Source: Chiloscyllium plagiosum (Eukaryota). Taken from it: a stretch of DNA of 64,000 nt. The notes under the pieces are model-generated. The model was given only the letters and a program-made list of their open reading frames with translations, was not told the origin of the DNA and did not search any database. Numbering within the stretch: the stretch's first letter is position 1; every line of letters begins with the position of its first letter. Below, piece by piece: positions 6,541 to 57,480 of the stretch. The position numbers and the translations under genes were made by a program. The DNA is taken from assembly GCF_004010195.1 (NCBI RefSeq), contig NC_057719.1:12563969-12627968 (forward strand), written 5' to 3'.

Positions 6541-8005
6541 AAAACAGCCAAGTTTCTGGTATTGAGATTGGCTCTAATGCAATGAGGGGTACGTCAGGTT
6601 CCAAGAGATTGATTGTGTTGTGGGCTCTCTAGTCCGAGGCACAGACGGACACTTCTGTGGCCAGTAGCAAAATATCAGAATGGTGTGTTGCCTCCCTGGT
6701 GCCAGGATGTCTCAGAGAGGGTACAGAATGTTCTCGCGCGAGAGAGAGAGAGGGTCCAGCAGAAGGTCATTATAAACATTGGAACCAATGACCTAGGAAG
6801 GGAAAAGGATGAGATTGTGAAGGGAGAATATAGAGAGTTAGGCAGGAATTTAAAAAGGAGGCCCTTGAGAGTAGTCATATCTGGATTACTCCCAGTGCTA
6901 CGAGCTAGTGAGAGTAGGAAAGGAGGATAGAGCAGATGAATGCATGGCTGAGGAGCTGGTGTATGGGAGAAGTATTCACATTTTTGAATCATTGGAATCT
7001 CTTCTAAGGTAGAAGTGACCTGTACAAGATGGGCGGATTGCACCTGAATTGGCAGGGAGATTTGCTAGAACTGTTCAGGAGGATTTAAACTAGTAAGGTA
7101 GGGGGATGGGGATCCCAGGGAGATAGTAAGGAAAGAGATCAATTTGAGACTGGTACAGTTGAGAAAAGAAGTGAGTCAAACAGTCAGGGCAGACAGGGAC
7201 AAAGCAGAGACAAGGTAGGACAGATAAATCAGACTGCATTTATTTCAATGCAATAGGCCTAACAAGGAAGGCAGATGACTCAGGGCATGGTTAGGAACAT
7301 GGGACTGAGATATCATAGCAATTACAGAAACGTGCCTCATGAATGGACAAGACTGGCAGCTTAATGTTTCAGGATACAAATGCTACAGGAAGGACAGAAA
7401 GGGAGGCAAGAGAGTAGGATAAGTGGTGTTTTTGATAAGGGATGGCGTTACAGCTGTACTGAGGGAGAATATTCCAGGAAATACATCCAGGGAAGTTAGT
7501 TGGATGGAACTGAGAAGTAAGAAAGGGATGATCACCTTATTGGGATTTTATTATAAACCCACTAATAGTCAGAGGGAAATTGAGAAACACATTTGTAAGG
7601 AGATCTCAGTTATCTGTAAGAGTAATAGGGTGATTATGGTAGGGGAATTTAACTTTCCAAACATAGACTGGAACGGTCATAGTGTTAAAGGTTTAGATGG
7701 AGAGGAATTTGTTAAGTGTGTACAAGAACATTTTCTGATTCGGTATGTGGATGTACTTACTAGAGAAGATGCAAAACTTGAGGAGAAAGTGAGGTCTGCA
7801 GATGCTGGAGATCAGAGCTGAAAATGTGTTGCTGGAAATCTCCGTGTACAGTGCATCATCCGTCGTCATTTCCGCCACCTCCAAACGGACCCCCCACCAA
7901 GGATATATTTCCCTCCCCTCCCCTATCAGCATTCCGTAAAGACCACTCCCTCCGTGACTCCCTCGTCAGATCCACACCCCCCACCAACCCAACCTCCACC
8001 CGCGG

Positions 8006-8252
8006 CACCTTCCCCTGCAACCGCAGGAGGTGCAAGACTTGCGCCACCTTCCCCTGCAACCGCAGGAGGTGCAAGACTTGCGCCACCTTCCCCTGCAACC
8101 GCAGGAGGTGCAAGACTTGCGCCACCTTCCCCTGCAACCGCAGGAGGTGCAAGACTTGCGCCACCTTCCCCTGCAACCGCAGGAGGTGCAAGACTTGCGC
8201 CACCTTCCCCTGCAACCGCAGGAGGTGCAAGACTTGCGCCACCTTCCCCTGC
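8006..8252 (+). repeat. Perfect 39-bp tandem repeat, 6.3 copies (TFPCNRRRCKTCA)n
   Basis: Unit caccttcccctgcaaccgcaggaggtgcaagacttgcgc at 8006, 8045, 8084, 8123, 8162, 8201 and a partial copy at 8240. Confidence 0.95.
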
Positions 8253-8388
8253 GACCTCTCCGCCCCCACCCCAGTCTGACCTATCACCCTCACCTTGACC
8301 TCTTTCCACCTATCGCTTTTCCGACACCCCTCCCCCAAGTCCCTCCTCCCTACCTTTTATCTTAGCCTGCTGGACAAACTTTCCTCAT

Positions 8389-8420
8389 TCCTGAAGAAGG
8401 GCTTATGCCCGAAACGTCGA
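8389..8420 (+). ncRNA. Minimal type I hammerhead ribozyme motif (PLE family A)
   Basis: CTGAAGA-A-GGGC(ttat)GCCC-GAAA-CG-TC: both core boxes, 4-bp stem II, palindromic ACGT stem III. Confidence 0.7.
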
Positions 8421-9275
8421 TTCTCCTGTTCCCTGGATGCTGCCTGACCTGCTGCGCTTTTCCAGCAACACCAGATGCAAAACTTGACGTACTTTTGGAA
8501 AATAAGGTAAGGCAGGTGACTGAGGTGTCAGTGAGGGAGGACTTTGGGGCCAGTGACCATAATTCTATTAGTTTTAAAATAGTGATGGAAAAGGTAGACC
8601 AGATCTAAAAGTTGAAATTCTAAATTGGAGGAAGGCTTATTTTGACAGTATTAAGCAAGAACTTTCAAAAGTTGATTGGAGAAGATGTTTGCAGGTAAAG
8701 GGATGGCTGAAAAATGGGAAGCCTTTAAAACTGAGATAACGTGAGTCTAGAGACAGTATATTCCTGTTAGGGTGAAAGGAAAGGCTGGTAGGTGTAGGGA
8801 ATGCTGGATGACGAGAGAAATTGAGAGTTTGGTTAAGAAAAGGAAGGAAGCACATGTCAGGTATAGACAGGATAGACCAAGTGAATCCTTAGTAGAGTAT
8901 AAAAGCAGTAGCAGTATACTTAAGAGGGAAATCAGGAGGGCAAAAAGGGGACATGAGATAGCTTTGGTAAATCGGGTAAAGAATTCAAAGGGTTTTTACA
9001 AATACATTAAGGACAAAAGGGTATCTAGGGAGAGGATAAAGCCCTCAAAGATCAGCAAGGCGGTCTTTGTGTGGAGCCGCAGGAGATAGAGGAGATACTA
9101 AATGAGTATTTTGCATCAGTGTTTACAATGTAGAAGGACATGGAAGGTATAGAATGTCACCATCTATTTCTCTACATCTTGAAAAATGTCCATATTACAG
9201 AGGAGGAAGTGATGTATGGCTTTAAATGCATAAAAATGGATAAATCCCTAGGGCCTGATCAGGCGTATCCTAGAA

Positions 9276-13822: not shown

Positions 13823-14016
13823 GTATGTCAATATTGTTAGATTTTTAAAATTTTATATAATGCCTTTATATACATTGGTAAAGCTGTTGTGAAAATGCAT
13901 ATGCATATGATTAGCTTAGATTAGATTAGAGTGTGGAAACAGGCCCTTCGGCCCAACAATCCACACCAACCCGCCGAAGCGCAACCCACCCATATAGGTT
14001 GTTAAAATCTTTTTGG

Positions 14017-22150: not shown

Positions 22151-22688
22151 AAGGTAGTGCCAATCAATCAGGTTGCTTTGTCCTTGATGATGTCAAGCTT
22201 CTTGAGTGCTGTTGGAGCTGCACCCATCCAGGCAAGTGGGGAGTATTCCATCACACTCTGGACATGTACATTATAGATGATGGACAAGCTTTGGGAGTCA
22301 GAAGGTGAGTTACTCGCAGCAGTATTCTGAGCCTCTGATCTGCACTTGTAGCCACTGTTTTTAACGTGGCAAGTCCAGTTGAATTTCGGGTCAATGGTAA
22401 CCCCAAGGATGTAGATAGTGGGAGATTCGGTGATGATAACACCATTAAATGTCAAGGGGTAGTGATTAGATTGTCTCATTGGAGATGGTCATTGCCTGGC
22501 ATTTGTGTGTCGCACATGTTACTTGACATTTGCATTGGAACATGGACTGCTTCAGTATCTAAGGAGTCACAAATGGTGCTGAACATTGAGCAATTATCTG
22601 CAAACGTCCCCACTTCTAATCTTATGATGAAGGGAAGGTCGTTGATGAAGCAGCTGATGATGGTTGGGCCTAGGACACTATTCTGAGG

Positions 22689-22828
22689 TTAAAAATCACA
22701 CAACACCAGGTTATAGTCCAACAGGTTTATTTGGAAGCATTAGCTTTCGGAGCGCTGCTCCTTCATCAGGTGTTGTATAATTTTTAACTTTGTCCACCCC
22801 AGTCTAACACTGGCTCCTCCACATCAGG
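22689..22828 (-). mobile_element. Miniature PLE-derived insertion (family B) with hammerhead core at 22741-22772
   Basis: TSD actattct(g/a)agg at 22677-22688 and 22829-22840. Minus strand reads CTGATGA-A-GGAGC(agc)GCTCC-GAAA-GC-TA. Confidence 0.75.
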
Positions 22829-23264
22829 ACTATTCTAAGGGACTCCTCAGAGAGATGTCCTAGAGCTGAGAAAACTGACCTCCAATAACCATAACCATCT
22901 TCCTAAGTACCAGGTATGACATAACCAGCAGTGTGTTTGGCCCCCAATTCCCCTTGATTCTAGTTTTGCTAGGGCTCCTTCATGCCACAAATGTATCCTT
23001 GATGTCAAGGGCTGTCACTCTCACCTCACCTCTGGAATTCAGCTTTTTTGTCCATATTTGAACCAAGGCTGTCAGAGGCAAATGGCCCTGGCAGAACCCA
23101 AACTGGGCATCAGTTAGCAGATTATTGCTGTGCAGGTACTGCTACATAGCATTGTTGATGACACCTTCTGTCACTTTACCAATGGTCATGATTGTACGTA
23201 ATTGGCTGAGTTGTATTTGTCCTGCTTTTTGTGTACAGGACATACCTGGCAATTTTCCACATTG

Positions 23265-24892
23265 GACCAAGTGAAGTCTGCAGACGCTGGAGATCAGAGT
23301 TGAGTGTGGTACTGGAAAAGCTCAGCAGGTCAGGCAGCATTGGAGGAGCAGGAGAATCGACGTTTCAGGCATAAGCCCTTCATCAGGAATGAGGCTTGTG
23401 AGCCAAGGGGGGAGAGAGATAAATGGGAGGGGCTGGGGCTGGGGTGAAGGTGCTGAGGGTGTGCTAGGTAGTTGAAGGTGGGGGTAATGGTGATAGGTTG
23501 GACAGAAGGGTGGAGTGGATAGGTGGGAAGAAAGATGGACAGGTGGGACAGGTCATGAGGGTGGTGCCAAGTTAAAAGATTGGATCTGGGAAAAGGTGGG
23601 GGGGGAGGGGGAATGAGGAAACTGATGAAATCCACATTAATCCCGTGAGGTTGGAGGGTCCCAAGGTGGAAGATGAGATGTTCTTCCTCCAGGCATTGGG
23701 TCATTAATGTTTGGTGATGGAGGAGGCTCAGCACCTGCATGTCCTTGGTGGAGTGGGAGGAGGAGTTGAAGTGTTTGGCCACAAGGCAGCGGGGTTGATT
23801 CGTGGAGATGTTCTCTGAAGTGTTCAGTAAGTAGGTGTCCTGTTTCCCCAGTGTAGAGGAGACCGCATCGGGAGCAATGGATACAGTAAATGACATGTGT
23901 GGAAGTGCAGTTAAATCTATGATGGATGTGGAAGGCTCCTTTGGGAACCTGGATGGAGGTGAGAAGTAAGCCCGGAAGTGAAGGCGGCAGAAGAAGTGTT
24001 CGATGTTGCAACGTGTGTTGGATTTGTTGATCCGGGAGGAGAGGGGAATGAAGGTAAGGCCTTTACTGAGGACTCTCCAACCAAGGACAGATCACCCCTG
24101 GTCCTCACCTTCCACCCTGACAACCTCCATATACATTGTATCATCCTCTGCCATTTCCACCACCTACAAATGGACCTCCTACTAGGGATATATTTCCCTC
24201 CCCCACCCCATCTGCATTCGGTAAATACAATTCCCTCCGCGACTCTCTTGTCAGGTCCATGCTACCCAACCAACGCACCCCACCCTCCTGGCATCTTCTC
24301 CTGCCACTGCAAGAATTGCAGAACCTGCGCCCGCACCTCTCCCATCACCTCCATCCAGGGCCCCAAAGGGCCTTCCACATCCATCATAGATTTAACTGCA
24401 CTTCCACATGTCATTTATTGTATCTGTTGCTCCCAGTGTGATCTCCTCTACATTGTGGAGACAGAATGCCTACTTGCAGAACGCTTCAGAGAACATTTCC
24501 GGGATACATACAACCTCACCGCCTTGTGGCCGAACACTTTAACTCCCCCTCTCACTCCGCCAAGGACATGCAGGTGCTGGGCCTCCTCCATTGCCAAACC
24601 CTAACCGCCTGATGCCTGGAGGAAGAATGGCTCATCTTCCGCCTTGGATCCCTCCAACTCAACGAGATTAATGTGAATTTCACCAGTTTCCTCATTTCCA
24701 TTACTCCCAATATCATCTACCTATCACAATCTCAACTACCTTACTCCCAGCCACATCCCCCTCCCATTTATCTCTTTACCCCCTTGGCTCACAAACCTCA
24801 TTCCTGATGAAGGGTTTATGACTGAAACATGGATTCTCCTGCTCCTCAGATGCTGCCTGACCTGCTGTGCCTTTCCAGGTCCACGCTCTTGA
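23265..24892. mobile_element. Fold-back Neptune-type PLE: two inverted GIY-YIG/pLTR arms with 15-bp TSD
   Basis: TSD caattttccacattg at 23250-23264 and 24893-24907. VIYCIHCSRCGLLYTGETG on minus, VIYCICCSQCDLLYIVETE on plus. Hammerhead cores near 23357-23388 (-) and ~24804 (+, degenerate). Confidence 0.88.
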
Positions 24893-25699
24893 CAATTTTC
24901 CACATTGTCATGTAGATGCCAATGTTGTAACTGTACTGGTGACGAGGGGAGCGGCAACTTCCAGAGCAAAATTCTTCAATGCTATTTCTGGAAAGCTGAC
25001 AGGGTCCAAAATCTTTCACACTGTCAGTTTTTCCGACCATTTCTTCAAGTCACGTGGAGTGAACTGAATTGTTTGAAGACTGATATCTGAGATGCAGGAG
25101 ACCACTGGAGAAGGCCAAGATGGATCATCCATTCAGCACTTTTGGCTGAAGATTGTTGCAAACACTTCAGCCTTATCTTTTGCACTGAAGTGTTGGGCTC
25201 CTCTATCATTGAGATGGAGTTCCTTCCTCCCTCCAGTGAGTCGTTTAATTTTCCACTACCATTGACAACTGGATGTGACAGGACTGCAGAACCTAGATCT
25301 GATCCATTGGTTGTGGGATCACTTAGCTTTATCACTTGCTAGTTATACGGTTTGGTATCCAAGTAGTCCCGCTTGGTTGCTTCAGCAGGTTGATGTCGCA
25401 TTTTTAGGAATGCCTGAACCACCCTTTCATGCTCTCTCCATTGACCCAGAATTGATCCTCTGACCTGATGGTAATGGTTGAATGGGGATGTGCCATGCCT
25501 TGAGGTTGCAGATTATGCTGGAGTCCACATCTGTTGCTGTTGATGAATAACAGTGCTTCGTGGATGCCAGTTCTGAGTCTGTCCAATTTAGCATGTTGAT
25601 AGTACTCCAGAACACAATGGATTCTCAATATGAAGGCAGGATTTTGTCTCTCGGACCATGCAGTGGTCACTGCGTGGACCACAGATCCAGTTTTAGTTT

Positions 25700-26520: not shown

Positions 26521-26537
26521 CAGTCCTTACGTTTCAC

Positions 26538-27830: not shown

Positions 27831-29970
27831 TTGAAAAAAATCGGTTATGCTTCCAAATCAACTGTCAGCTCATCAACTTTGTCTGAAGCATGTTGTTCAA
27901 GGGAAAATTATTGTTGAACTTACTGAGCCTCATTATGTGGCATCATAATAATTCCCCTTTTTACTTTTAAAAAAAATTTATTCACCAATGTGAGCATCAA
28001 CTAGACCACTACTTATTGCCCATCCCTTATTGCTAGAGTATAGTTAAGAATCAACCACATTGCTGAGAATTTGGAGTCACATGTAGGCCAGATCAGGTAA
28101 GGACAACAGTGTCCTTCCTTCAAGGACATTAGTGAACCAACAATCAACATCCGTTTCACGATCATCATTCGACTCTTAATTCCAGACACTTTTTTTAAAA
28201 AGTAGAATTTAAATTCTACTATCCCAGACTGTTGCCTGGATCTCTGGATTAATTGTCTAGCGATGATGCCAGTGGGCTGAAACCTCCCCCCCGCCCCCAT
28301 ACTCAGGTGACATACAAGACAAATGTTCTCAAAAATGCATTTGCCCACTCTGCATGGAAGTTGTACATTTTTGGTTTCATTTTAAGTGCCACAGGTTCAT
28401 TCAGTTTTTGCTCCATTTTGTTTGTTTTTTGTGACATCACTCTGAATTTACACCTCTGGAACACCAAGAATGTTGCTCCTTTCAAATGTGGAGGTATGGG
28501 AGGTCACTTGTCTCAGAGGGCCCCATCAGCTCACATTGCTCAGATGGTATAGGCCAGCATTCTCTGTAAGTTTTATTTGTCCTGCATCAACCTATTATAC
28601 GAGTGCTGAAGGAAGAAAAAATCCTGCATGTTTACAGACAGTGAGCAGAGAAATGGGACTAACTTGAGCTGTTCTTGCAGAGTCTGTATGGACTCAATGG
28701 GCTTAAATAGTCTATGTGTCTAGTAATATACTGGCTTCAAACATCTGTTCTGAGCACACTTTTTATTCATTTGTTTGCATTGTCAACACAAAATTTACTT
28801 AACCCTGCAATGACAGTCCACTTGGACCAAACAAACGATGCAAGAAGCTGAACAAGGCCTGTTATGCACTTTAGCTATGTAGATTCCAGAAGCACAAACC
28901 ATGCAGTGACATAACAATCAATGTACAGTATAGCTGGGTAGAGATCCACTGTCCGAGATTATGAGATATCTATGTTGGAGACTTGGAACAAGGCAGTGGC
29001 ATATGGAAATAACACCTCTCCAGGTCACACACTATCATTTGGAAATCATCGTAAAGTTAAAATTCAGAAATTCTTTCCTTATTACATGAGCCACAATGGT
29101 TCGACCGATTGGCTCACTAGCACTTTTTCCAAGGGCAATTAGCAATGGCTAAGAAATACTGACTTTGCTAAATTACTGATTGGTCCCAAATATAAAACAG
29201 GGATTGTTCTTTTAGAAAGTAAATATCAACCAAGGCTTGCATTCATAAAGTTTAGGAACATTTGTGGTAAATCACATTCAGGACATTGAGTTTTAAGTGC
29301 AGGACTGCATGCATACATACACCCCTTTCCTGAACTTGCTGTTATTTGCCTCCTGATCAGTGAGAAAATGTCAAGTTGAATTATTCAATGGTCATTTGTC
29401 TTTTTCAAAGGGGAAAGTTTATTGTTCAAATTTATACAAGAAAACACATCTCACTTGTCACTCCAGATTATAAGAAGCCTTTGCTTATTGTTCAATGCTG
29501 TTTTATCCCCTCAGCTCTTGAGGATATCTCTTACTGGAATATGGATCCATTTACAAAATCCTCAAACCCATAACAAGTAGTCACTTTTCACATCTAGGTT
29601 TAAAAAGTGAGAGTCATATGTTTTGCCTGATTGTGTGAATAAAGACTGGGCAAAGAGAAAAGAGCCTTCCCAATACTCCTCCAAACATTCAGCTTGAGCG
29701 AGGACCAAGAGGCTGTTGGGAAAGTAAATTGATCCTATAAAAACTTGCCTTGCGAATAGGCGGAGCACATGCTGAGCAGGAGCGGACACGGGACGGCCAG
29801 GTAAGTGAGGTAATATATTTGGGTGGTTGCTTTACCCGAAACACTACTTAGGTAGTGTCTCCCACTCATCCTCCTGTAACCAAAAAAAAAGGTTCTGTGC
29901 GCCAGTTTGGTAAGGTTACTAGATTTTTATCAATAGTTTCTTTGGGAATTCAGAACAGTGGGTATGGATG

Positions 29971-30095
29971 ATGAAGGGCTTTTGCCCGAAACATCGATTT
30001 CCCTGCTCCTCGGATGCTGCCTGACCTGCTGTGCTTTTCCAGCACCACTCTAATCTAGACTCTGGTTTCCAGCATCTGCAGTCCTTGTTTTTACC
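29971..30095 (+). mobile_element. PLE family A terminal fragment inserted at the CR1 ORF1 start codon
   Basis: atggatg duplicated at 29964-29970 and 30096-30102. Begins inside the hammerhead core. Confidence 0.8.
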
Positions 30096-31173
30096 ATGGA
30101 TGTTAGGGCAGTTGTATGCTCCTCCTATACAATATGGGAGGCAATGGTCACCACCAGTATCCATGCTGACTTCGTCTGTGGGAAGTGCACCCAACTCCAG
30201 TTCCTCAGAGACCACGTTGGGGAGCTGGAGCTGGATGAACTTCAGATCATTCGGGAGGCTGAGGGGGTAATTGAGAGGAGTTACAAGGAGATTGTTACAT
30301 CTCAGGTACAGGAAAAAAGTAGATGGGTTACAGTCAGGGGATTGAAAAGGTACAGACAGACAGTACAGGGATCCCCTGTGGCCGTTCCCCTCAACAACAA
30401 GTATACTGTTTTGGATTCTGTTGAGGGTGTGGACTTACCAGGGGTAAGCCGTGGGGGACGGGTCTCTGGCAGAGAATCTGTCCCTGTTGCTCAGAAGGGG
30501 GGAGAGGAGTAGAGCATTAGTCACTGGGGACTCCATAGTTAGGGGGACAGATAGGAGGTTCTGTGGGAACGAGAGAAACTCACAGTTGGTGTGTTGCCTC
30601 CCAGGTGCCAGGGTGCAGGATGTCTCGTATTGTGTTTTTAGTATTCTTGAGGGGGAGGAGCCCCAAGTCGTAGTCCACAAAGGCACCAATGACATATGTA
30701 GGAAAAGGGATGGGGCTGTAAGGCAGAAATTCAAGGAGCTAGGGTGGAAGCTTAGAGCTAGAGCAAACAGAATTGTTATCTCTGGTTTGTTACCTGTGCC
30801 ACGTGCAAGCGAGGCAAGGAATAGGGAGAGAGAGAGAGCAGTTGAACCCATGGTTACAGAGATGGTGCAGGAGGGATTCAGATACCTGGATAACTGGGGC
30901 TCATTCTGGGGTAGGTGGGACCTCTACAANNNNNNNNNNNNNNNNNNNNGGGGGGGGGGGGGGAGGCAGTGGGTGCTCATTGCTAATGTTCTTTTGGGAG
31001 GATTTAAACTAATTCAGCAGAGGGATGGGAACCTGAACTGTAGCTGCAGCATACAGGAGGTTAAGAGTAGTGATGTCATGAATAAGGTTGCAAGGTCGTA
31101 GGTATGTAACAGCAGGCAGGAAGGTGGCTTGAAGTGTGTGTACTTCAGTGCCAATAGTATCCAGAATAAGGTG

Positions 31174-31387
31174 TGAGCTGAAAATGTGTTGCTGGAAAAG
31201 CGCAGCAGGTCAGGCAGCATCCAGGGAACAGGAGAACCGATGTTTCGGGCATAAGCCCTTCTTCAGGAGAAGGGCTTGTGCCCGAAACGTCGATTCTCCT
31301 GTTCCCTGGATGCTGCCTGACCTGCTGCGCTTTTCCAGCAACACATTTTCAGCTCTGATCTCCAGCATCTGCAGACTCACTTTCTCC
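31174..31387. mobile_element. Miniature fold-back PLE (family A), two inverted pLTR ends, 14-bp TSD
   Basis: TSD tccagaataaggtg at 31160-31173 and 31388-31401. Arms ~90 bp, nearly perfectly complementary. Confidence 0.88.
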
Positions 31388-31610
31388 TCCAGAATAAGGT
31401 GGGTGAACTTGCAACATGTGTTTATACCTGGGACTTCAATATGGCCATTTCGATGACATGAATAGAGCAGAGTCAGGAATGGTTGTTGCAGGTCCTGGGG
31501 TTCAGATGTTTCAGTAAGATTAGGGAAGGTGGTAAAAGATGAGGCATTGTTAGTCAAGGATAAAAATCACACAACACCAGGTTATTGTCCAACAGGTTTA
31601 ATTGGAAGCA

Positions 31611-31645
31611 CACTAGCTTTCGGAGCGATGCTCCTTCATCAGGTG
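31611..31645 (-). ncRNA. Minimal type I hammerhead ribozyme motif (family B)
   Basis: cac-CTGATGA-A-GGAGC(atc)GCTCC-GAAA-GC-TA-gtg: stem I cac/gtg, 5-bp stem II, palindromic AGCT stem III. Confidence 0.75.
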
Positions 31646-31664
31646 ACTGTGATCATCCTTCATC

Positions 31665-31696
31665 CTGATGAAGGAGCGTCGCTCCGAAAGCTAGTG
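31665..31696 (+). ncRNA. Minimal hammerhead ribozyme motif (family B), inverted partner
   Basis: CTGATGA-A-GGAGC(gtc)GCTCC-GAAA-GC-TA-gtg. The 5' strand of stem I is altered. Confidence 0.65.
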
Positions 31697-34600
31697 TGCT
31701 TCCAATTAAACCTGTTGGACTATAACCTGGTGTTGTGTGATTTTTAACTTTGTACACCCCAGTCCAACACCGGCATCTCCGAATCATTAGTCAAGGATAG
31801 TATTACAGTGGCAGAAAGGATGTTTGATGAGGACTTGTCTACTGCGGTAGTAGAAACAGGAAAGGTCACCTTGTTGGGAATTTTCTATAAGGCCTTCAAA
31901 AACGTTCCAGGATGTAGAGGAAAGGATAGCAAAGATGATTCTGGATAGGAGCAAAAGTAACAGGGTAGTTGTTATGGGGGACTTTCACTTTCCAAATATT
32001 GACTGGAAATGTTATAGCTCAAGTACCTTAGATGGGTCAGTTTTTGTCCAAAGTGTGCAGGAGGGTTTCCTCTTGCAGTATGTAGATAGGCCAACAAGAG
32101 GTGAGGTCACATTGGATTTGATATTGGGTAATGGACCAGGCCAGATGCTAGATTTAGAGGTGGGTGAGCACTTTGGTGATAGTGATCACAATTCAGTTAC
32201 ATTTACTTTAGCGATGAAAAGTGATAGGTATATACCACATGGCAAGAGTTATATCTGAGGGAAAGGCAATTAAGATGCGATTAGGCAAGATTTAGGATGC
32301 ATTGGATGGGGAAGGAAACTGCAGAGGGAAAGCACAACTGAAATGTGGAGTTTGTTCAAGGAACAGCTACTGCATGTCCTTGATAAGTATGTACATGTCA
32401 GGCAAGGATGAATGGTTGAGCGAGGGAACCGTGGTTTACTAAAAAGGTTGAATCTCTTGTCAAGAGAAAGGAGGAGGCTTATATAAAGATTCAACGTGAA
32501 GGCTCTGTTAGGGCGCTTGAGAATCACAAATTAGCCAGGAAGGGACAGAAGTTTTTGGCAGGTAGGATCAAGGAAAACACTAAAGGTTTCTATAGGTATG
32601 TCCAGAATGAAAGAATGACTAGAGTAAGATTAGGGCCTGTCAAGGACAGAAGTGGGAAGCTGTGCTCAGATCTCTTACCCACAGAGATAGGAGAAGCGCT
32701 AACGGAGTATTTTTCATCAGTATTCACATAGGAAAAAGACAATGTTGTCGAGAAGAATACGGAGATACAGGCTATTAGACTAGATGGGACTGATGTTCAA
32801 TGAGGAAGAGATGTTAGCAATTCCAAAAAGTGTGAAAATAGGTAGGTCCCCTGGTCCATATGGGATTTATTCTAGGATTCGCTGGGAAACTAGGAAGGTG
32901 ATTGGAGAGCCTTCGGCTTTGATCTTTATGTTGTCATTGTTATTGGGATTGAGGGTGATTTGAGAGAAAGTGAGGGCTGCAGATGCTGGAGATCAGAGCT
33001 GAAAATGTGTTGCTGGAAAAGCGCAGCAGGTCAGGCAGCATCCAAGGAACAGGAGAATCGACATTTTGGGCATAAGCCCTTCAGGAAGTTTGGATCAGAA
33101 ATTGGCTAACTGAAATAAAACAGAGGGTGGTGGTTCATGGGAAATGTTCATCCTGGAGTTCAGTTACTTAGTGGTGTACTGCAGGATCTGTTTTGGGGCC
33201 ACTGCTGTTTGTCATTTTTATAAATGACGGGGATGAGGGTGTAGAAGGATAGGTTAGTAAATTTGCAGAAGTCAGTGGATATGTGGACAGTGTGGAAGGA
33301 TGTTGCAGGTTACTGAAGGACATAGTTAAGTTGCAGAGCTGGGCTGAGAGGTGTAAAATGGAGTTTAATGCAGAAAAGTACGAGGTAATTCACTTTGGAA
33401 GGAGCAATAGGAATACAGAGTACTGAGCTAGTGGTAAGATTCTTGGTAGTGTGGATGAGCAGAGCGATGTCGGTGTCCACGTGCACAGATCCCTGAAAGT
33501 GGCCACCCAGCTTGATAGGGTTTTTAAGAAGGCATGCGATGTGTTTGCTTTATTGATAGAGGGATTGAGTTTTGGGGTCATATTGCAGCTGCACTTGGGA
33601 GTATTGCGTACAGTTCTGGTCGCCACATTCTTGGAAAAGCGTGGAAGCATTGGCTAGGGTGCAGAGAGGATTTATCAGGATGCTGCCTGGTATGGAGGGG
33701 GGGTCTTATGAGGAAAGGCTGAGGGACTTGAGGCTATTTTCATTAGAGAGGTGGTTAAGAGGTGACTTAATAGAGACACATGAGATGATTAGAGGTCAGG
33801 TAGAGAGTGAGAGCCTTTTACTCAGATGGTGATGGCTAGCACGAGGGGACATAACTTTAAATTGAGAGGTGATATATATAGAACAGATGTCAGGGTTAAG
33901 TTCTTTACTCAGACTAGTAAGGGTGTGGAAGGCCCCACCTGTAACAGTAGTAGACTCGCCACCTTCAAGGACATTTAAATGGTCATTGGATAAATACATG
34001 GATTGTAATGGAATAGTGTAGATTACATGGGCTTCAAATTGGTTTCACTGGTCGTCACAACATCAAGGGTCAAAGGGCCAGTACCACGCTGCACTGTTCT
34101 ATGTGTGGGATTTCCATTGAGAGCAACATATTCTTTTCTTTTCCTCACTCAAGTAGTAACCTGAGCCAAACTGCAGCCTTCTGAGGCAGGGTCAACCTTA
34201 GGACATCTCGGTCTGAAAAATTCTCATGCACATTCTGTTAATCAAACAGACACATTAAGGAAGCTGCAAGAGGCATTATGAACACTGATCCTTGTGATGT
34301 TACTCCATGCAAATTGCATTCCAGAAATCTTGAACTTTACTACATTTTTTTCTATAAATCCCATAATCTATAAAACCACAAAGCATTTTATAAACAGTTT
34401 AATTTGTCAATGCTTTCTACATAATCAGTTACAATGAACTCAAACAATCAGGAACATAGAGCTTCATGTATGATTAAGTGTTTCTGCACTACCTCCTCCC
34501 AATTTGAAAGGGGAAACCTCAACACAGGGCATTGAGGTGAGACTCTTCACACTCCAACCAAGATTTATTTGAATATCTTATTTCCAATACAAATTCACAA

Positions 34601-40381: not shown

Positions 40382-40732
40382 CCACTACTGTTTGTTATTT
40401 TTATATATGATCTGGATGTGGGCGTAGAAGGATGGATTAATAAATTTGCGGATGACACTAAGGTGGGCAGAGTTGTGGATAGTGCCAAAGGATGGTGTGA
40501 ATTACAGAGGGACATTAATAAGATGCAGAGCTGGGCTTTGAAGTAGCAAATGGAGTTTAGTACGGAAAAGTGTGAGGTAATTCACTTTGGAAGAAATAAC
40601 AGGAATACAGAGTACTGGGCTAATGGTAAAATTCTTGGCAGTGTAGATGAACAGAGCGATCTCGGTGTCCAGGTGCATAAATCCCTGGAAATTGCTACTC
40701 AGGTTGATAGGGTTATCAACAAGGCACATGGT

Positions 40733-41898
40733 AAAAACAAGGGCTGCAGATGCTGGAAACCAAATTCTGGATTAGAGGTGCTGGAAAAGAACAGCAGTTC
40801 AGGCAGCATCCAAGGAGCAGTAAAATCGACGTTTCGGGCAAAAGCCCTTCATCAGAAATATAGGCAGAGAGCCTGAAGGGTGGAGAGATAAATGAGAGGA
40901 GGGTGGGGGTGGGGAGAAAGTAGCATAGAGTANNNNNNNNNNNNNNNNNNNNNNNNNNNNNNNNNNNNNNNNNNNNNNNNNNNNNNNNNNNNNNNNNNNN
41001 NNNNNNNNNNNNNNNNNNNNNNNNNNNNNNNNNNNNNNNNNNNNNNNNNNNNNNNNNNNNNNNNNNNNNNNNNNNNNNNNNNNNNNNNNNNNNNNNNNNN
41101 NNNNNNNNNNNNNNNNNNNNNNNNNNNNNNNNNNNNNNNNNNNNNNNNNNNNNNNNNNNNNNNNNNNNNNNNNNNNNNNNNNNNNNNNNNNNNNNNNNNN
41201 NNNNNNNNNNNNNNNNNNNNNNNNNNNNNNNNNNNNNNNNNNNNNNNNNNNNNNNNNNNNNNNNNNNNNNNNNNNNNNNNNNNNNNNNNNNNNNNNNNNN
41301 NNNNNNNNNNNNNNNNNNNNNNNNNNNNNNNNNNNNNNNNNNNNNNNNNNNNNNNNNNNNNNNNNNNNNNNNNNNNNNNNNNNNNNNNNNNNNNNNNNNN
41401 NNNNNNNNNNNNNNNNNNNNNNNNNNNNNNNNNNNNNNNNNNNNNNNNNNNNNNNNNNNNNNNNNNNNNNNNNNNCACCTCCGCTCCCTCACCACCAGAC
41501 GCCTGGAGGAAGAACGCCTCATCTTCCGCTTCGGAACACTTCAACCCCAGGGCATCAATGTGGACTTCAACAGTTTCCTCATTTCCCCTTCCCCCACCTC
41601 ACCCCAGTTCCAAACTTCCAGCTCAGCACTGTCCCCATGACTTGTCCAACCTGCCTATCTTCTTTTCCACCTATCCACTCGACCCTCCTCCTTGACCCAT
41701 CACCTTCATCCCCCTCCCCCACTCACCTATTGTACTCTATGCTACTTTCTCCCCACCCCCACCCTCCTCTCATTTATCTCTCCACCCTTCAGGCATTCTG
41801 CCTGTATTACTGATGAAGGGCTTTTGCCTGAAACGAGGATTTTACTGCTCCTCGGATGCTGCCTGAACTGCTGTGCTTTTCCAGCACCTCTAATCCAG
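40733..41898. mobile_element. Fold-back Neptune-type PLE spanning an assembly gap
   Basis: TSD aa(c/g)aaggcacatggt at 40718-40732 and 41899-41913. Inverted arms; hammerhead core at 40826-40857 (-). Confidence 0.85.
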
Positions 41899-42653
41899 AA
41901 GAAGGCACATGGTGTGTTGGCGTTTATTGTTGAGGGATTGAGTTTCAGAGCCACGAGGTCATGCTTCAGCTGTACAAGACACAGGTAAGGCCACACCTGG
42001 CATATTGCATGCAATTGTGGTCACCGCATTATAGGAAGGACATGGAAGCTTTGGAAAGGGTTCACAGGAAATTTAATAGATGTTGCCTGGTATGGAAGGA
42101 ATGTCTTAAGAGGAAAGGCTGAGGTAACGGAGACTGTTCTCGTTGGAGAGGGGAAGGTTGAGAGGTGACTTTATCTGGACGTATAAGATAATCAGAGGGT
42201 TACATAGGGTGGAGAGTGAGAGCCTTTTTCCTCAGATGAAAGCTAACATGAGGGCACAAAGCTTTAAATTGGGGGGTGATAGATTTAGGACAGATATTAA
42301 GGGTAGTTTCTTCACTCAGTAGTAGGGGCGTGGAATGGCCTGCCTGCAACAGACTTGCCAACATTAAGGGCATTTAAATGGACATCGGACATACATATGG
42401 ATAATAATGGAACGGGGTAGGTTAGATGGGCATATGATTATTTTCAAAGGTCGGTGCAACAGAGGGCTGAAGGGTCCGTACTGTGCTGTAATGTTCTTTG
42501 TGCCAACTGCCTTTTTAACCATCCTGCCTATATGTGGCGCTAACTTGAAAGAATTATGTACCTGCTTGGTCCCTCTGTTCTACAACAACCCGAGGCCCCT
42601 GTTCTACAAGGCTCTACCATTAACTGGATGACAAAAAGTAGTTATTGTCTCAC

Positions 42654-49993: not shown

Positions 49994-51804
49994 GTAAATT
50001 CTAATTTGTTTCTGAACATGAGAGAGAGATAGTGTGTGAGTGACTGACTGACTGAGCGAGAGGGCGCTTCTTGCCAGAAGGCACTCGACTTTGCTACCAG
50101 GCTACTTCATCCTCTCAGAACTGGGACAATTCGAACATAAAACAAAAAATTGTGATCTTTTATTTACGCTGTAAAGATTTTTCTTTTGCAGTGCCTGTGG
50201 GAAGAAAGCAGAGTTAACGTTTCGACTCTGGGTTGATGAATTAACTTTGCTTTCTTCTCTCAGCCGTGCTCAGTTTCTTCAATATTTTCTGTTTATTTTT
50301 TGTTTCACATCTCTAGCCACACCTGTTAGTTTCCTTTTTACGATTCTCCTTCCTCTCCTTTTAAGATGTTGGCGAGTAGCCACGGCAACCCTCGTCCCCA
50401 TCACTCACATCTGACAGTATTCCATCACCAAGTGGCTCTTTATTTGATGTGGATAATCTTTGATGTTGATCCGGCCCTCTTAGAGTGAGTAGGATGTCTG
50501 ACACTTTTTTTGTGCAGGTGTGAGACACAGGGAAGACACTTCTATTTTTCTGTCAGCCAGTGCTCCCTGATTGGACCAGATTAATAGCCTAAGGTCCATC
50601 TGGCTGACCTTGTTACAATTACTACATTCCTCCCCTTCTGTCTTTGTGGACATAGGCTAGTGCTTTTCTGTACTTCCTCATGGGGCCTTTTAGCACCGGG
50701 TCAAGATCCTCCAATTCTGCCTCTGATTCAAGTGGCTTGTAACGCATAGTAGCTCGCCAGGGTTATCCAGGGATTTTCAAAACGAAGATGTTAGCGAGAA
50801 GTAATGTCTGAGGAAGGGTAATTGGTAGCAATGGTGCAGAGGTGGTATCCTCACTGTTTCCATCTCAAATTCTGAGGTAAATTCAATGCTTGATGGAGAG
50901 AGAGAGAACTCACGGGCTTTGGAGCAATTGAAAAGGCAGTTTAGGAGCTGAGAACATTTTGCTCCGCCATTTGAGAGTTTGCAGCTTTCATATGGTCCAC
51001 ATGCTTGTTCAGGACCATCACACCTACCTGAACTTTTTACATCACTGGACCTGAAATTGTGTAGACTATAACTTACCCATGCAGAGCCATTTCCATTGTT
51101 CCTACACCAAACTTTGTCCCCTGAAGTAATCTATTTCCTCACTTAGTGAAGTAGTGTGCAGCATTGATGTTCGTGATGCCGATCTTCCTCTTCCCCCTGG
51201 TCCAGGAAGATCAGCTTTAACATGGTGCAGGGTCTTCCCTACATTAGCAAGTCTGCCAAAGCACAGACTTACACATTTTCAGCTCTGATCTCCAGCATCT
51301 GCAGTCCTCACTTTCTCCTGCCAAAGCGATCACTGGAGTTACGCGAGGGGTGGTTCTAAAATCAATGAGGAACCAGGACAGTTTATTATCAAGTGAAGCT
51401 GCTTCTTTAAGTTTGCCTTCAAAATTTGGACTGCTCTTTTTGCCAGACTTTTTGATGATGGATGGTATGGAGCTGGCTTTCAACTTTGGGAAATACTGAA
51501 ACTTCTTGCTGGGAAACAATCTGTCACCAACACCTCTGAGAGTCTATTGCAAAAAAAGTGCCCTTTTTCTATCGTTGACCCCATGTTTGACAAATGAGCT
51601 CTGAGTGTCCACAATGACTGAGAATGTTCAGCCCATGAAAGGACCCACATAGTAGACGTGTAACTGAATCCATGATTTTGCTGGCCATTCCCACGATTGT
51701 GGGGAGCTGCTAGTGGTAATTTTTTTCTTTGTTGACATTCTGGGCACTGTCCCACCAATGCAGCTATGTCTGCATCCATTCCTGGCCAACAGACAATACT
51801 TCTC

Positions 51805-51932: not shown

Positions 51933-53169
51933 CAGACATTACTTCTCGCTAACATCTTCGTTTTGAAAATCCCTGGATAACCCTGGTGGAGTTCAAACAG
52001 TGTCAGACAGCAACATTTAATCAGGACAATCACTCTTGTTCCCACTAATAATATGCCCTCTCCTCCTGAGATCGGATCTCTCCAGGTCCAAAAAGGTTTA
52101 GTTCTGGTTGTGATGGCCTTTTGACTGCCCCCATCACCTCCATCTGTTTGTTTTGCAAGGACTGGATCTTACTGAGTCCAAAGTCTGATGTCAGCTGTGA
52201 CTGGAAGTGTGTCCAGAAAATTTAAAACCATTAGACTCTTCCAGTGGCAGTACCAGTGTGGTGTAGCTGCCAGTGGGAAGTGGCTCAATGCATCCGCATT
52301 TGCTATTTGGCCTCCTGGACAACTTGTAATTATACGTACTTAGTTCTGGAGGCCACCACTGAATTCTGCCAGAAACTATGGACACCATTGCCTTGTCCTT
52401 TAAGTAGACCAAACAGAGGTTTGTGGTCTGTTATTATTACAAATTTATGTCAGTAAAGTATTGATGGAATTTCCTCCAAGTCTGACCACCAAACCTTCCT
52501 TCTCTATCTGGGCGTTTTTATGCTTTGCATTATCCAAACTCCTGGATGTGTTTGCAATTGAGTGTTCCTCTCCATTGGGCCGCTGATGAGCTAATACTAC
52601 CCAAAAGCCATACAGGCAGGCATTGCGTGTCATTACCAGATTTTGCTTGTGATCATAGAGGATGATAGCTGTCTTTTAATTTCCTTAAAAGCTCTGGCTT
52701 GGCTATGCAACTATTTCTGAGGCTGACCTTTGTTTTTAGGATTAATGCAAACCTGCCAGGATGGAGGCCAGGTAATGTATGAACTTTCCATAATAGTTCA
52801 CCAGTCCAAGGAAAGACCTTAGCTCCAATACAGATGTGGGAGACCAGGCACCTGTGATTGCCCTCACTACCTTCCAATGGGTATAACGTGGTCTTTTCAA
52901 CTGTGTAGCCCACGTAGCTCACTTGGGGTGCCTGGAACAGACGTTTTATCCTTCTAAAGCATACACCCATCAGGGACAAACATTGAAGGTCTATGTTCAA
53001 ATTCTAAATGCTCCTTATGGATCTTCCCTGTTATTTTTGCTTGATTAGATCAATGGTGACTTGGAGTAGGTCTTGTAAAACGTTCTCTATTTTCTGCTGA
53101 AAAATTAGACAGGCTGACGATACCCCAAATGGCAGTCTTTTATGTTAGTACAAATCTTTTATGGTTATT

Positions 53170-56100
53170 CAAAGTTTGTGAGAAGATTTGTAGCTCGGGT
53201 GCTTGTTGTTGTGGTTCTGTTCGCCGAGCTGGGAATTTGTGTTGTAGACGTTTCGTCCCCTGTCTAGGTGACATCCTCAGTGCTTGGGAGCCTCCTTGAA
53301 GCGCTTCTGTGATGTTTCCTCCGGCATTTATAGTGATTTATAGTGACAACCTGCCGCTTCCGGTTGTCAGTTCCAGCTGTCCGCTGCAGTGGCCGGTATA
53401 TTGGGGGTCCAGGTCGATGTGCTTATTGATTGAATCTGTGGATGAGTGCCATGCCTCTAGGAATTCCCTAGCTGTTCTCTGTTTGGCTTGTCCTATAATA
53501 GTAGTGTTGTCCCAGTCGAAATCATGTTGCTTGTCATCTGAGTGTGTGGCTACTAAGGATAGCTGGTCATGTCGTTTCGTGGCTAGTTGGTGTTCATGGG
53601 TGCGGACCGTTAGCTGTCTTCCTGTTTGTCCTATGTAGTGTTTTGTGCAGTCCTTGCATGGGATTTTGTACACTACATTGGTTTTGCTCATACTGGGTAT
53701 CGGGTCCTTCGTCCTGTTGAGTTGTTGTCTGAGAGTGGCTGTTGGTTTGTGTGCTGTTATGAGTCCTAGTGGTCGCAGTAGTCTGGCTGTCAGTTCAGAA
53801 ATGTTCTTGATGTATGGTAGTATGGCTAGTCCTTTGGGTTGTGGCATGTCCTCATTCCATTGTCTTTCCCTTAGGCATCTGTTGATGAAATTGCAGGGGT
53901 ATCCGTTTTTGGCGAATACAGAGGAAGGTGTTCTTCTTCCTCTTTTTGCAGTTCTGGTGTACTGCAGTGTGTTGTGGCCCTTTTGAACAGTGTCTTGATA
54001 CAACTTCTTGTGTGTGTTGGGGTGGTTGCTTTCATAGTTTAGGACTTCGTCTGTGTGTGTGGCTTTTCTGTATACCTCTGTTCGGTGTTCTCTGTACCAT
54101 NNNNNNNNNNNNNNNNNNNNNNNNNNNNNNNNNNNNNNNNNNNNNNNNNNNNNNNNNNNNNNNNNNNNNNNNNNNNNNNNNNNNNNNNNNNTTTAATGAT
54201 TACAAAGGTATCATCTACATATCTGACCCAGAGTTTGGGTTGAATTTGCGGTAAGACTGCTTGTTCTAACCTTTGGATTACCGCTTCTGCTATAAGTCCA
54301 GAGATGGGTGAGCTCATGGGTGTGCCGTTGATTTGTTCATATATTTGGTTGTTGAATGTGAAGTGTGTTGTGAGGCACAGATCCAGTAGTTTGAGTATGC
54401 AGTCTTTGTTGATAGGTTCCTCGTCTTGTTGTCTGTTCTGTATGTCCAGCAGGTTGGCTATTATTTCTCTGGCTAGGGTTTTGTTGATAGAGGTGAACAA
54501 TGCTGTTACATCGAATGAGACCATAGTTTCTTCCTTGTCTATGTGAATATTTCTGATGATGTCCAAGAATTCCTGTGTTGACTGTATAGAGTGTCTGGAT
54601 TCGCTGATCAGGTGTTTCAGTTTCTGCTGTAATTCTTTAGCCAGTTTGTGTGATGGTGTCCTGTAGGAAATGGGAATCCTGTGCCAACCGCCTAAGTGCC
54701 ACATATGAACAAGTCCTGTTCCTGCACAAATGCCGAAAGAATCGAATCCTTCCACCATGTGTCAGATACAGACCACCAGTCAACAACCCACAAGCTAGGA
54801 ACACAGCCAGACAGAACGGATTCAGGATGATCCAATTAATGATTACAGATGCATACAACAGACTACACAAATACAGACAAGAAATTGCGCGCCAAAAATC
54901 GTTAATTTCAAAAACCACCAATCAGGAATGGACCCGGACCATAGAACAGGCCATCATCATAGTACAGAACAGGACACACACCGCAAAAAAATGGCACTAA
55001 AAGAAAAAATGGCCAAACTAACACGCAACAGAGAGGACACCACAACACACTCCTGGATTAGAAACCTCTCCCGCAGACAGCTCACAGACACAGACAGAAC
55101 AATACTGGCCAAGGGACTCAACTACAACCACAGGGACGCCAAGACAGCAGACTTCCTAGCAGCACTAGAATGCACACTCGGAAACAATGGACTGACAGAA
55201 GAGACACAACAAACAGTTAGACAAAGTATCGTACCCCTGATAACAAGGAAAAGACAAACACATAACCTCAACACCAAGGAGAGGGAAGCACTAAAAAATG
55301 ATAAGAACATAATCATACTACCAGCAGACAAAGGCAGAATGACGGTCATCCTGGACAAAGCAGAATACATCCAAAAAGCACAACAACTACTTGCAGATAT
55401 CAACACCTACCAAAATAGGGAGTTTGACCCCACCCCACAGCTCACCAATAGGATAAACAACACACTGAGGAACCTACAAAAAAAAACGGACAGATAACCA
55501 GGTTTGACCTACAGAGAATGAAACCTCAAAGCAACAACACCCCCAGATTCTATGGACTACCTAAAGTGCACAAACCAAACATCCCACTCAGACCCATAGT
55601 ATCACTACCAGGGACACCATCACACAAACTGGCTAAAGAACTACAGCAGAAACTGAAACACCTGATCAGCGGACCCACACGCAGATGACAAGCAACATGA
55701 ATTTGACTGGGACAACACTACTATTATAGGACAAGCCAAACAGAGAACAGCCAGGGAATTCCTAGAGGCATGGCACTCATCCACAGATTCAATCAATAAG
55801 CACATCGACCTGGACCCAATATACCAACCACTGCAGCGGACAGCTGGAACTGACAACCGAAAGCAGCAGATTCAAACCACAACAAATGCTGGAGGAAAGA
55901 TCACAGAAGCNNNNNNNNNNNNNNNNNNNNNNNNNNNNNNNNNNNNNNNNNNNNNNNNNNNNNNNNNNNNNNNNNNNNNNNNNNNNNNNNNNNNNNNNNN
56001 NNNNNNNNNNNNNNNNNNNNNNNNNNNNNNNNNNNNNNNNNNNNNNNNNNNNNNNNNNNNNNNNNNNNNNNNNNNNNNNNNNNNNNNNNNNNNNNNNNNN

Positions 56101-56885
56101 NNNNNNNNNNNNNNNNNNNNNNNNNNNNNNNNNNNNNNNNNNNNNNNNNNNNNNNNNNNNNNNNNNNNNNNNNNNNNNNNNNNNNNNNNNNNNNNNNNNN
56201 NNNNNNNNNNNNNNNNNNNNNNNNNNNNNNNNNNNNNNNNNNNNNNNNNNNNNNNNNNNNNNNNNNNNNNNNNNNNNNNNNNNNACATCAAAAACATTTC
56301 TGAACTGACAGCCAGACTACTGCGACCACAAGGACTCATAACAGCACACAAACCAACAGCCACTCTCAGACAACAACTCACCAGGACGAAGGACCCGATA
56401 CCCAGCATGAGCAAAACCAATGTAGTGTACAAAATTCCATGCAAGGACTGCACAAAACATTACATAGGACAAACAGGAAGACAGCTAACGGTCCGCGTCC
56501 ATGAACACCCACTAGCCACAAAACGACATGACCAGCTATCCTTAGTAGCCACACACTCAGATGACAAGCAACATGAGTTCGACTGGGACAACACTACTAT
56601 TATAGGGCAAGCCAAACAGAGAACAGCCAGGGAATTCCTAGAGGCATGGCACTCATCCACAGATTCAATCAATAAGCACATCGACCTGGACCCAATATAC
56701 CGGCCACTGCAGCGGACAGCTGGAACTGACAACCGGAAACGGCAGGTACAAATCACAATAAATGCTGGAGGAAACATCACAGAAGCGCTTCACAGGAGGG
56801 TCCCAAGCACTGAGGACTTCACCTAGACAGGGGACGAAACGTCTGCAACGCAAATTCCCAGCTCGGCGAACAGAACCACAACAAC
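53170..56885. mobile_element. Poseidon/Penelope-type PLE (RT + GIY-YIG) with inverted termini and 12-bp TSD
   Basis: TSD tttatggttatt at 53158-53169 and 56886-56897. ILPADKGR, YGLPKVHK, SFDVTALFT, GTPMSSPIS, RYVDD, VVYKIPCKDCTKHYIGQTGR. Confidence 0.92.
53244..53283 (-). ncRNA. Hammerhead ribozyme motif of the Poseidon pLTR (family C); inverted partner at 56807-56846 (+)
   Basis: gca-CTGAGGA-T-GTCACCT(agac)AGGGGAC-GAAA-CG-TC. The partner has stem I gca/tgc but a mutated stem II. Confidence 0.7.
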
Positions 56886-57480
56886 TTTATGGTTATTAAT
56901 TGTGGCATACTTCTGGGAATCCCCATCTAACTGCAATTGCAAGTACACAAGGCTCATGTCCAGCGTCATGAAAGACAGCCCCCTGCCAGCTTTGTCTCTA
57001 CCTCTGTGTGAGGAATTGGGCATTTACATAGCTGCGAAAAGCAGTTTACCATTTATTTACCAAGGCAAACTGACCCTTTGTACTTCATAATCGGTACAAC
57101 GGATGCTGCCTATTCTGCAAATTGGATAAGTTTGATAATTCTTTCTTTTACCAGCCTTCTGATTTCTGACTGTACTTTTGCCTGTAAGGTAAATGGCCTC
57201 CTAAAATCATGGACTTGCTTCCTGATAAACATGCAAGTTGGCCTTGACTCCTTTGATTGTCCCTTGACCTTCCCGAAAAACTGTCGGATATTTAATTAGA
57301 AAGTCACTCAGGCTGCCATTTTCTAATCAAAAAATGTTGAGCCAATCTAGATGAATCTTTTTGATCCATTCTGCCCAAACAAGCTTGGGACCAAGCCTTT
57401 TACTACAATCAGTGATAACTGAACCAACTTGCGCCAAATTTCCCATTGATCAAGCCAGTTGTAGTGCCTGTTTGAAGTCC

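Follow-up and report, generated by a model that had tools for sequence, protein, structure and literature searches.

How Penelope-like elements (PLEs) come to lie in a genome as pairs of inverted arms, of which one alone carries a short terminal tail, is a question raised by a 64,000-nucleotide stretch of the Chiloscyllium plagiosum genome (NC_057719.1, positions 12,563,969 to 12,627,968; hereafter the window, in whose own numbering all positions are given). The window has 41% GC and six gaps of N, and is dense in pieces of CR1-type long interspersed nuclear elements. An earlier model-made reading of the letters alone (the sequence-only reading) had singled out seven such insertions, each flanked by a target-site duplication (TSD), and had proposed that both target strands prime complementary DNA (cDNA) synthesis, one at the end of the element RNA and the other at a fixed internal site. 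Our analysis indicates that the insertions are probably ordinary 5′-truncated units of endonuclease-positive (EN+) PLEs, made by two-strand priming at two starts that are both internal to the RNA. The idea of dual priming was thus probably right, but it had been anticipated in print, and the details of an RNA end and a fixed site were wrong or overstated.

Two-armed insertions and their target sites

All seven insertions were recovered where they had been placed, with both 3′ termini pointing outward. Insertion 1 (7767..8487), of the Neptune-type family A, lies within the endonuclease region of a CR1 element; its tailed arm is 57 nt long (7782-7838, minus strand) and its tail-less arm (about 7839-8472, plus strand) stops 43 nt short of the tailed end. 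Insertion 2 (22677..22840), of family B, consists of a tail-less arm at 22689-22772 (minus) and a tailed arm at 22769-22828 (plus); the 4 nt that follow, ACTA, are common to the element and the TSD. Insertion 3 (23250..24907), of subfamily A3, is tailed from 23265 to about 24075 (minus) and tail-less from about 24080 to 24892 (plus). Insertions 4 and 5 are mini fold-backs in one and the same CR1 copy: the former (31160..31401; family A) has a tail-less arm from 31174 to about 31266 (minus) and a tailed arm from about 31268 to 31387 (plus), and the latter (31550..31799; family B) has a tail-less arm from 31563 to about 31645 (minus), a spacer of about 18 nt and a tailed arm at 31664-31786 (plus). 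Insertion 6 (40718..41913), of subfamily A2 and also in CR1 sequence, has its tailed arm (40733-40932, minus) separated by a gap of 543 N from its tail-less arm (41476-41898, plus). In insertion 7 (53158..56897), of the Poseidon-type family C, the tailed arm (53170 to about 54663, minus) holds the reverse transcriptase (RT) and GIY-YIG region, and the tail-less arm (about 54664-56885, plus) holds the N-terminus of the open reading frame (ORF), an internal jump, a gap of 374 N and the end of the GIY-YIG region. Insertions 6 and 7 therefore both include assembly gaps.

A screen for inverted arms turned up one further case, absent from the sequence-only reading: insertion 8 (about 47546-48307), an older Poseidon-type relative of family C, tailed on the left (minus) and tail-less on the right (plus). 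This screen is blind to arms that barely overlap and missed insertions 1 and 2, which are covered by the census of termini. All eight two-armed copies have exactly one tailed and one tail-less arm, an outcome with a probability of 0.004 if the arms chose independently at 0.5; the claim of a tail on one arm only thus holds for the original seven and for the added copy.

The TSDs of insertions 1 to 7 measure 15, 12, 15, 14, 13, 15 and 12 bp, as had been reported, with one mismatch each in the second and the sixth. They lie at 7767-7781/8473-8487 (15 exact), 22677-22688/22829-22840 (12 with one mismatch, 8 exact), 23250-23264/24893-24907 (15 exact), 31160-31173/31388-31401 (14 exact), 31550-31562/31787-31799 (13 exact), 40718-40732/41899-41913 (15 with one mismatch, 12 exact) and 53158-53169/56886-56897 (12 exact). 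Random spans of the same lengths gave at least 12 exact bases in 1 of 3000 trials, and at least 12 with one mismatch in none of 1000, so the TSDs are far above chance. The range of 12-15 bp, and the mode that the sequence-only reading made of it, describes two-armed copies in seven cases of this window. For insertion 8 the best candidate, 15 bp with three mismatches in A-rich DNA, was rejected.

Empty sites, called for as a check of these duplications, could be reconstructed in several ways. When the element and one TSD are excised in silico, the CR1-type host frame is open over the junction for insertions 1, 4, 5 and 6 (7782, 31174, 31563 and 40733), and excision likewise leaves an open frame for insertion 3 (23265). 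For the insertions at 22689 and 40733, the window has paralogues that run ungapped across the junction, and public contigs contain the single-copy site of insertion 5 (31563-31786; joints 31539 to 31790 and 31560 to 31808). A search for an empty site of insertion 7 (53170) found none.

Element families and class membership

Among named homologues, those nearest to the PLE proteins of the window are from sharks, with 87% and 61% identity to proteins of Chiloscyllium punctatum. A, A2 and A3 have related termini that are 78-86% alike. Family A, represented by 57816-58511 (minus) and insertion 1, has a CX4CX2C linker preceding the GIY-YIG domain, and a CX2-5CxxC linker in this place is described as a mark of the Neptune and Nematis clades (PMC8557442). 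By this predicted linker we assign family A to the Neptune/Nematis type, a pair of clades normally split by RT phylogeny, while family A in the window retains the RT thumb region and no core RT. Its GIY-YIG domain scores 22.2 bits against PF01541 (cut-off 22.6; E 1.8e-4), and the motif is present. In insertion 1, a 39-nt unit coding for this zinc-finger linker occurs as six in-frame tandem repeats (7963-8313).

Family C has an RVT_1 match above cut-off at 54192-54761 (minus), with 87% identity to the shark protein P0001 and 51% to the full-length protein P0002; the match to the latter spans N-terminus to endonuclease, with 50% at the C-terminus. Its GIY-YIG domain has no Pfam match, but the motif was found; no zinc-finger linker precedes it, and the ORF starts in stem II of the hammerhead, as in PAc, the Poseidon element of Anolis carolinensis. 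By these features we assign family C to the Poseidon type (Penelope/Poseidon clade). The two-armed pattern is therefore common to a family with the linker and a family without it, in keeping with the claim that Neptune- and Poseidon-type elements share it. No family B coding sequence lies in the window, and the family is assigned to PLEs by hammerhead, tail and architecture.

A minimal hammerhead pattern (CTGAnGA-helix-GAAA) was found by pattern scan in the arms of A and B, and that of family C was recognised by eye; an Rfam scan scored no hammerhead in the window. Taken together, the elements have pseudo-long terminal repeats (pLTRs) in direct or inverted orientation, 5′ truncation and a tail of 30-40 nt, and with a Penelope-type RT (in C), GIY-YIG domains and a putative hammerhead they have the sequence hallmarks of EN+ PLEs. 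A weak match of the hairpin at 31215-31314 to mir-680 in Rfam, far under the gathering score, was rejected.

Where the two arms stop

The tail of family C (53170..53204, minus) is 35 nt long and extends from +71 to +105 relative to the ATG in hammerhead stem II; the sequence-only reading had its start right but its extent as 33 nt, to 53202. In-frame translation from this ATG matches residues 19-53 of P0001, with the tail coding for residues about 42-53, and in both P0001 and P0002 the frame continues into the part that the window has from 54664 onward. The tail of family C is thus internal to the ORF, with the short arm stopping at +70 and the long arm at +105.

For family B, public contigs were used. 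PLE ends are abundant in these: more than 116,000 contigs per run were found with 585 bases spanning the A and B ends and CR1 flank. Loose ends were taken from three DNA runs (X1, X3 and X16) of two organisms, and 18 of about 1800 positions were listed. Among the positions listed, family B contigs depart from the window sequence at 31787 in 1100, 636 and 1162 contigs (X1, X3 and X16, respectively), and the consensus past this point begins with GACTA and then gives way to long, diverse flanks, which means that many copies extend at least 5 nt beyond the end given in the sequence-only reading. In the A2 copy ending at 30092, the next three bases, ACC, lie outside its host duplication. In C, B and A2, judged by these continuations, the long arm evidently does not end at the RNA end, contrary to what had been proposed.

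The short stop is likewise not a single fixed base. In family A the short arms stop 30 (57480), 31-32 (31174) and 43 nt (8472) short of the long arms, and the deficits are 32-34 nt in A2, 29-37 nt in A3 (ambiguous), 38-39 and 40-42 nt in B, and 35 nt in C. Family B short ends pile up, among the positions listed, at 31748, 31750 and 31751 in X1 (509, 558 and 649 contigs) and at 31749 and 31751 in X16 (637 and 710 contigs), i.e. at four adjacent bases. The short stop is a zone a few nucleotides wide: the broad scatter that the sequence-only reading had named as a refuting outcome was not seen for B, and neither was its single fixed base.

Public contigs also join the family A short end at 31349 to the family B short end at 31751 on opposite strands, in 4 contigs of X1, 7 of X16 and none of X3 among those listed. 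These joints look as if one of the families inserts at the short stop of the other, or as if mixed-family two-armed units form.

Relation between the arms

The two arms of an insertion are to a large extent different pieces of the element. In insertion 1 the 57-nt tailed arm and the 633-nt tail-less arm have 13 aligned nucleotides in common; in insertion 2 the arms overlap by 19 nt and meet on a 4-nt overlap; in insertion 7 the tail and the RT core are on one arm and the N-terminus is on the other. Each arm of these three insertions has sequence absent from its partner, so that neither can derive from the other, and a simple snap-back is ruled out for them. Insertion 3 has a perfect TSD, yet its arms are 10% divergent outside CpG and have large indels besides; two templates are suggested, though age could also be the cause. 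The mini elements at 31174 and 31563, in turn, are near-perfect hairpins with arms 1-2% apart outside CpG. The centres differ in every element: at some the arms overlap briefly, by 4 nt in insertion 2, and at others, as in insertion 5, there is filler.

The tail-less arm of insertion 7 starts 11 codons downstream of the start of its tailed arm, a layout expected of twin priming on one tandem RNA, although the case is a single one with a gap, and insertions 1 and 3 do not conform to this layout. About 70 nt of the RT N-terminal region are present in both arms of insertion 7 (54593-54661 and 55612-55680), whose plus-strand arm then jumps to the endonuclease end ahead of the 374-N gap; internally, this element may be partly tandem or may have been misassembled.

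Where the continuation of the tailed arm is known independently (insertions 2, 5, 6 and 7), 4, 1, 3 and 2 nt are common to element and TSD at the tailed junction (P about 1.6e-4, post hoc). Because of these shared bases, the true stagger is uncertain by a few nucleotides.

Predicted hairpins at the short stop

A stem is predicted around the short stop in each of the three unrelated termini, with its 5′ strand in the body of the element and its 3′ strand in the tail. In family C a 7-bp stem (53224-53230 with 53192-53198, minus; 53192..53230) would close an AC-rich loop in which the short arm stops. In family B a predicted 9-bp stem (31713-31721 with 31761-31769, plus; 31713..31769) encloses the short-stop zone at 31744-31751, and in family A one of 7-8 bp (31308-31315 with 31363-31370, plus; 31308..31370) encloses the stops, which correspond to 31344, 31355 and 31357. 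The predicted stems finish 17-22 nt ahead of the long stop, and comparable stems arose in 253, 20 and 49 of 3000 shuffles. The family A stem is conserved, with 87.5% paired over seven variants; two variants and the old relative of family C fold otherwise. The shared hairpin is to be taken as a post hoc prediction. Two variants common in family B, 31730 G>A and 31757 C>T, concern a single predicted pair of the inner stem; if linked, they would compensate each other.

Probable priming from both target strands, and its alternatives

The observations are best accommodated by a two-ended reaction. The RT/GIY-YIG protein would nick the two target strands 12-15 nt apart, as the TSDs suggest, leaving 3′ overhangs, and each target 3′ end would then prime a separate cDNA, with element RNA across the pLTR-ORF junction as template. 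Priming from both strands is indicated because each arm extends a target 3′ end with sequence of the cDNA sense. Both starts would be internal to the RNA: one, in a zone of a few nucleotides within the hairpin loop, would give the tail-less arm, and the other, 30-43 nt downstream and about 17-22 nt or more beyond the hairpin, would give the tailed arm, often at a primer-template match of 1-4 nt. The start positions are observed, and the role of the hairpin is what we infer. The two cDNAs would stop at unrelated points and be joined head to head, sometimes via short overlaps or filler, and gap filling would create the TSD; the template may be one tandem RNA or two RNAs. The earlier claim that both target strands prime across a staggered cut is supported by the geometry and the independence of the arms in the window, and by the extension of both strands in vitro by PAc (PMC11167929).

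We consider a stricter form of this reaction as a tentative possibility, and would not yet favour it. PLE integration would then be obligatorily asymmetric and conserved in Neptune- and Poseidon-type elements: a protein dimer would nick 12-15 nt apart and direct one strand to a start in the loop of the RNA hairpin; the other strand would go to a start some 20 nt beyond the hairpin, with 1-4 nt of primer pairing, so that every two-armed insertion would have exactly one tail and an intact hairpin in its tailed arm alone.

Several points weigh against two-strand priming at two internal starts. Two-armed cases number eight, all in one window, and about ten other termini in the same window are single-armed and have short or no TSDs. 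The strict pairing of a long and a short arm is not explained by the report on PAc, since PAc in vitro shows no strand preference between its two start sites (PMC11167929). No consensus at the nick site and no ATT-like motif was evident by eye over 14 sites. Tail-less junctions show no excess of microhomology (5 nt in total over seven, P 0.12). The hairpin finds no backing in covariation, which in the family A stem is no higher than in shuffles (72 of 500 as high), and folding z-scores of whole termini are weak (-1.8 to +0.2). When the terminus of family A was used in a protein search, there was no match; the tail seen to be ORF-internal is that of family C. Among the contig loose ends, the short-arm position of B is absent from the six positions listed for X3, and family A gives no clean peak; its one listed 3′ entry, at 31345, has a consensus that looks like another subfamily continuing.

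That the first primer starts at the genuine RNA 3′ terminus and the second at one fixed internal base, as had been suggested, seems unlikely. Five family A tailed arms do end at nearly the same base (7782, 31387, 32964, 46664 and 51318), the family B long end is the top ‘behind’ entry in all three DNA runs, and a processed or terminated family A RNA may end at the long stop; against this, the tail of C lies within the ORF, B and A2 sequence runs beyond the stop, the short stops of A cover 13 nt and those of B at least 4 nt, and PAc disregards extra 3′ template sequence (PMC11167929). The tail might instead arise from endonuclease resolution of a DNA intermediate: inverted or tandem cDNA would be cleaved at both of its pLTR-ORF junctions, at sites separated by 30-40 nt, before it is linked to the target, which is the interpretation offered in PMC8557442. 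Such a step would account directly for the strict long/short pairing (8 of 8), PAc cuts the DNA of its own ORF-pLTR junction (PMC11167929), and the contig joints between A and B short ends (31349 with 31751; 4 and 7 contigs) look as though short ends were targets. We nevertheless regard it as improbable: RT starts in vitro coincide with genomic tail boundaries (PMC11167929), the microhomology at junctions fits priming, and TSDs of 12-15 bp would require a second, different stagger.

An origin by a single target-primed reverse transcription followed by snap-back or self-priming, in which the first arm, or else an antisense template (discussed in PMC3846280), would be copied to give the second arm, would suit the mini elements at 31174 and 31563 with their near-identical arms. 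It is contradicted for three of the seven insertions, given the overlaps of 13 aligned nucleotides at 7782 and 19 at 22689 and the private sequence of each arm there and likewise at 53170, and the divergent arms and large indels of the insertion at 23265 sit badly with it despite the perfect TSD; its probability is slight. Least plausible of all is that pre-formed fold-back masters, like miniature inverted-repeat transposable elements, move as a unit, or that the pattern is due to chance or assembly. Two elements are gapped and a perfect 70-bp inverted duplication in the window resembles a scaffolding artefact, but every centre is different, the TSD null stands at 1 of 3000, and termini, junctions and one empty site recur in independent public contigs of two organisms.

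Relation to known systems

The two-armed, one-tailed architecture needs no new category of element: it is a published PLE signature (Arkhipova 2013; Craig 2021), and an explanation by two start sites is also in print; what the window adds is quantitative detail, namely the strict pairing, the TSDs of 12-15 bp, the short primer matches and the shared hairpin geometry. The PLEs of Craig 2021 (PMC8557442) have the same inverted repeats, 5′ truncation, tail at one end and hammerhead motif in the pLTR in several clades; there the tail is ascribed to endonuclease resolution and the accessible text gives no TSD length, whereas the window has TSDs of 12-15 bp and one tail in 8 of 8 copies. In the rotifer Adineta vaga, Pen2a, Pen2 and Pen3a likewise have inverted pLTRs with a 31-bp tail on one of them, the tail codes for N-terminal residues of the ORF, and the TSD is backed by an empty site (PMC3846280). 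Their published TSDs are 8-10 bp (8, 9 and 10 bp) as opposed to 12-15 bp in the window, and their palindromic centres are read as self-priming, which does not fit three of the seven window copies (PMC3846280).

The closest experimental system is PAc, whose protein cuts and extends both strands in vitro (Frangieh 2024, PMC11167929). Two internal RT starts bracket its tail, one start lies in an AC-rich stem-loop, and a dimer is predicted (PMC11167929). Family C resembles PAc in that its ORF begins at hammerhead stem II and its predicted loop is AC-rich; the stem-loop start of PAc is at 111-118 (PMC11167929), against family C stops at +70 and +105. In the accessible text PAc differs in showing no strand bias of the start sites and no reported primer-template homology, and the length of the stagger does not appear there (PMC11167929); Figs 1F-G, S1 and S2 of that paper may already depict the stagger and the geometry of the stem-loop.

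If the strict pairing, the TSD length, the short primer matches and the hairpin geometry hold genome-wide, the open second half of the PLE cycle, the formation of inverted units, would become a set of predictions for the PAc in vitro system, and the boundaries of PLEs in shark-type genomes, where such ends are very abundant, would become easier to annotate.

In the twin priming of L1 associated with Ostertag and Kazazian, both target strands reportedly prime cDNA, leaving a head-to-head junction, short overlaps and a TSD. The starts there are the poly(A) end and a variable internal site, and the arms do not overlap. The window insertions share the priming from both strands and the head-to-head junctions, and the 11-codon offset of insertion 7 fits; they differ in that both arms carry the same pLTR end and the starts are family-specific. 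Twin priming on a single tandem template is a good fit for one of the seven insertions. Membership in L1-type twin priming was rejected, since there is no poly(A) and the arms overlap in the pLTR; the reaction works like it but is not it.

No statement of a 12-15 bp TSD mode, of PLE twin priming or of strict long/short pairing was found in the accessible text of the literature searched, with older papers and Repbase outside that search; the accessible parts of PMC8969392, PMC9977147, PMC10509279, PMC12910113 and 10.64898/2026.07.22.740005 contain neither a 12-15 bp TSD mode nor PLE twin priming.

Single-armed termini and other features

The two-armed pattern is not universal in the window, which also holds about ten single-armed termini (903, 12223, 29969-30092, 32964, 37947, 51271, 51822, 57480, 60157 and 60317), and a further one at 46664 adjoins a gap. 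TSDs were searched on nine spans (eight termini and part of the copy at 47546), a set outside which 46664, 57480 and 60157 lie; duplications of 7 bp (29969), 10 bp (51271) and 14 bp with two mismatches (12223) were found, and none convincing on the remaining spans searched.

A tailed A2 arm (29964..30102, plus; arm 29969-30095) has the 7-bp TSD and shows the element continuing with ACC beyond the end given in the sequence-only reading. No TSD was found for a tailed family A arm (32963..33087, minus) or for a tailed family B arm (60317..60442, minus). A tail-less family A arm (57480..58490, minus), 30 nt short and including GIY-YIG and the CX4CX2C linker, abuts a CR1 piece; neither a partner arm nor a TSD was found for it in the window. 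A tail-only family A piece (51253..51327, plus; 51271-51318) is flanked by the 10-bp duplication and an 8-nt filler. This filler, which precedes the piece, is almost the reverse complement of the host flank immediately upstream of the duplication (51249-51271), which suggests templated repair.

The perfect 70-bp inverted duplication (50757-50826 and 51917-51986) surrounds a 1.1-kb segment and takes in the hammerhead-like start of the divergent arm at 51822; it may be a scaffolding artefact or a very recent inversion. Many arms (29969, 31266, 31645, 31664, 33083, 22772 and 60440) have 5′ truncations that fall within a few bases of the hammerhead core and upstream of where cleavage is predicted.

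A single CR1-type copy (30054-32258) has been hit by three PLE insertions, at 29969 on its 5′ edge and at 31174 and 31563, the latter two 175 bp apart, and a fourth PLE lies at 32964 in nearby CR1 sequence. Finally, a 217-residue coiled-coil-like frame at 13239-13892, which has no Pfam match, resembles a host exon, and the insertions may be intronic in the gene concerned.

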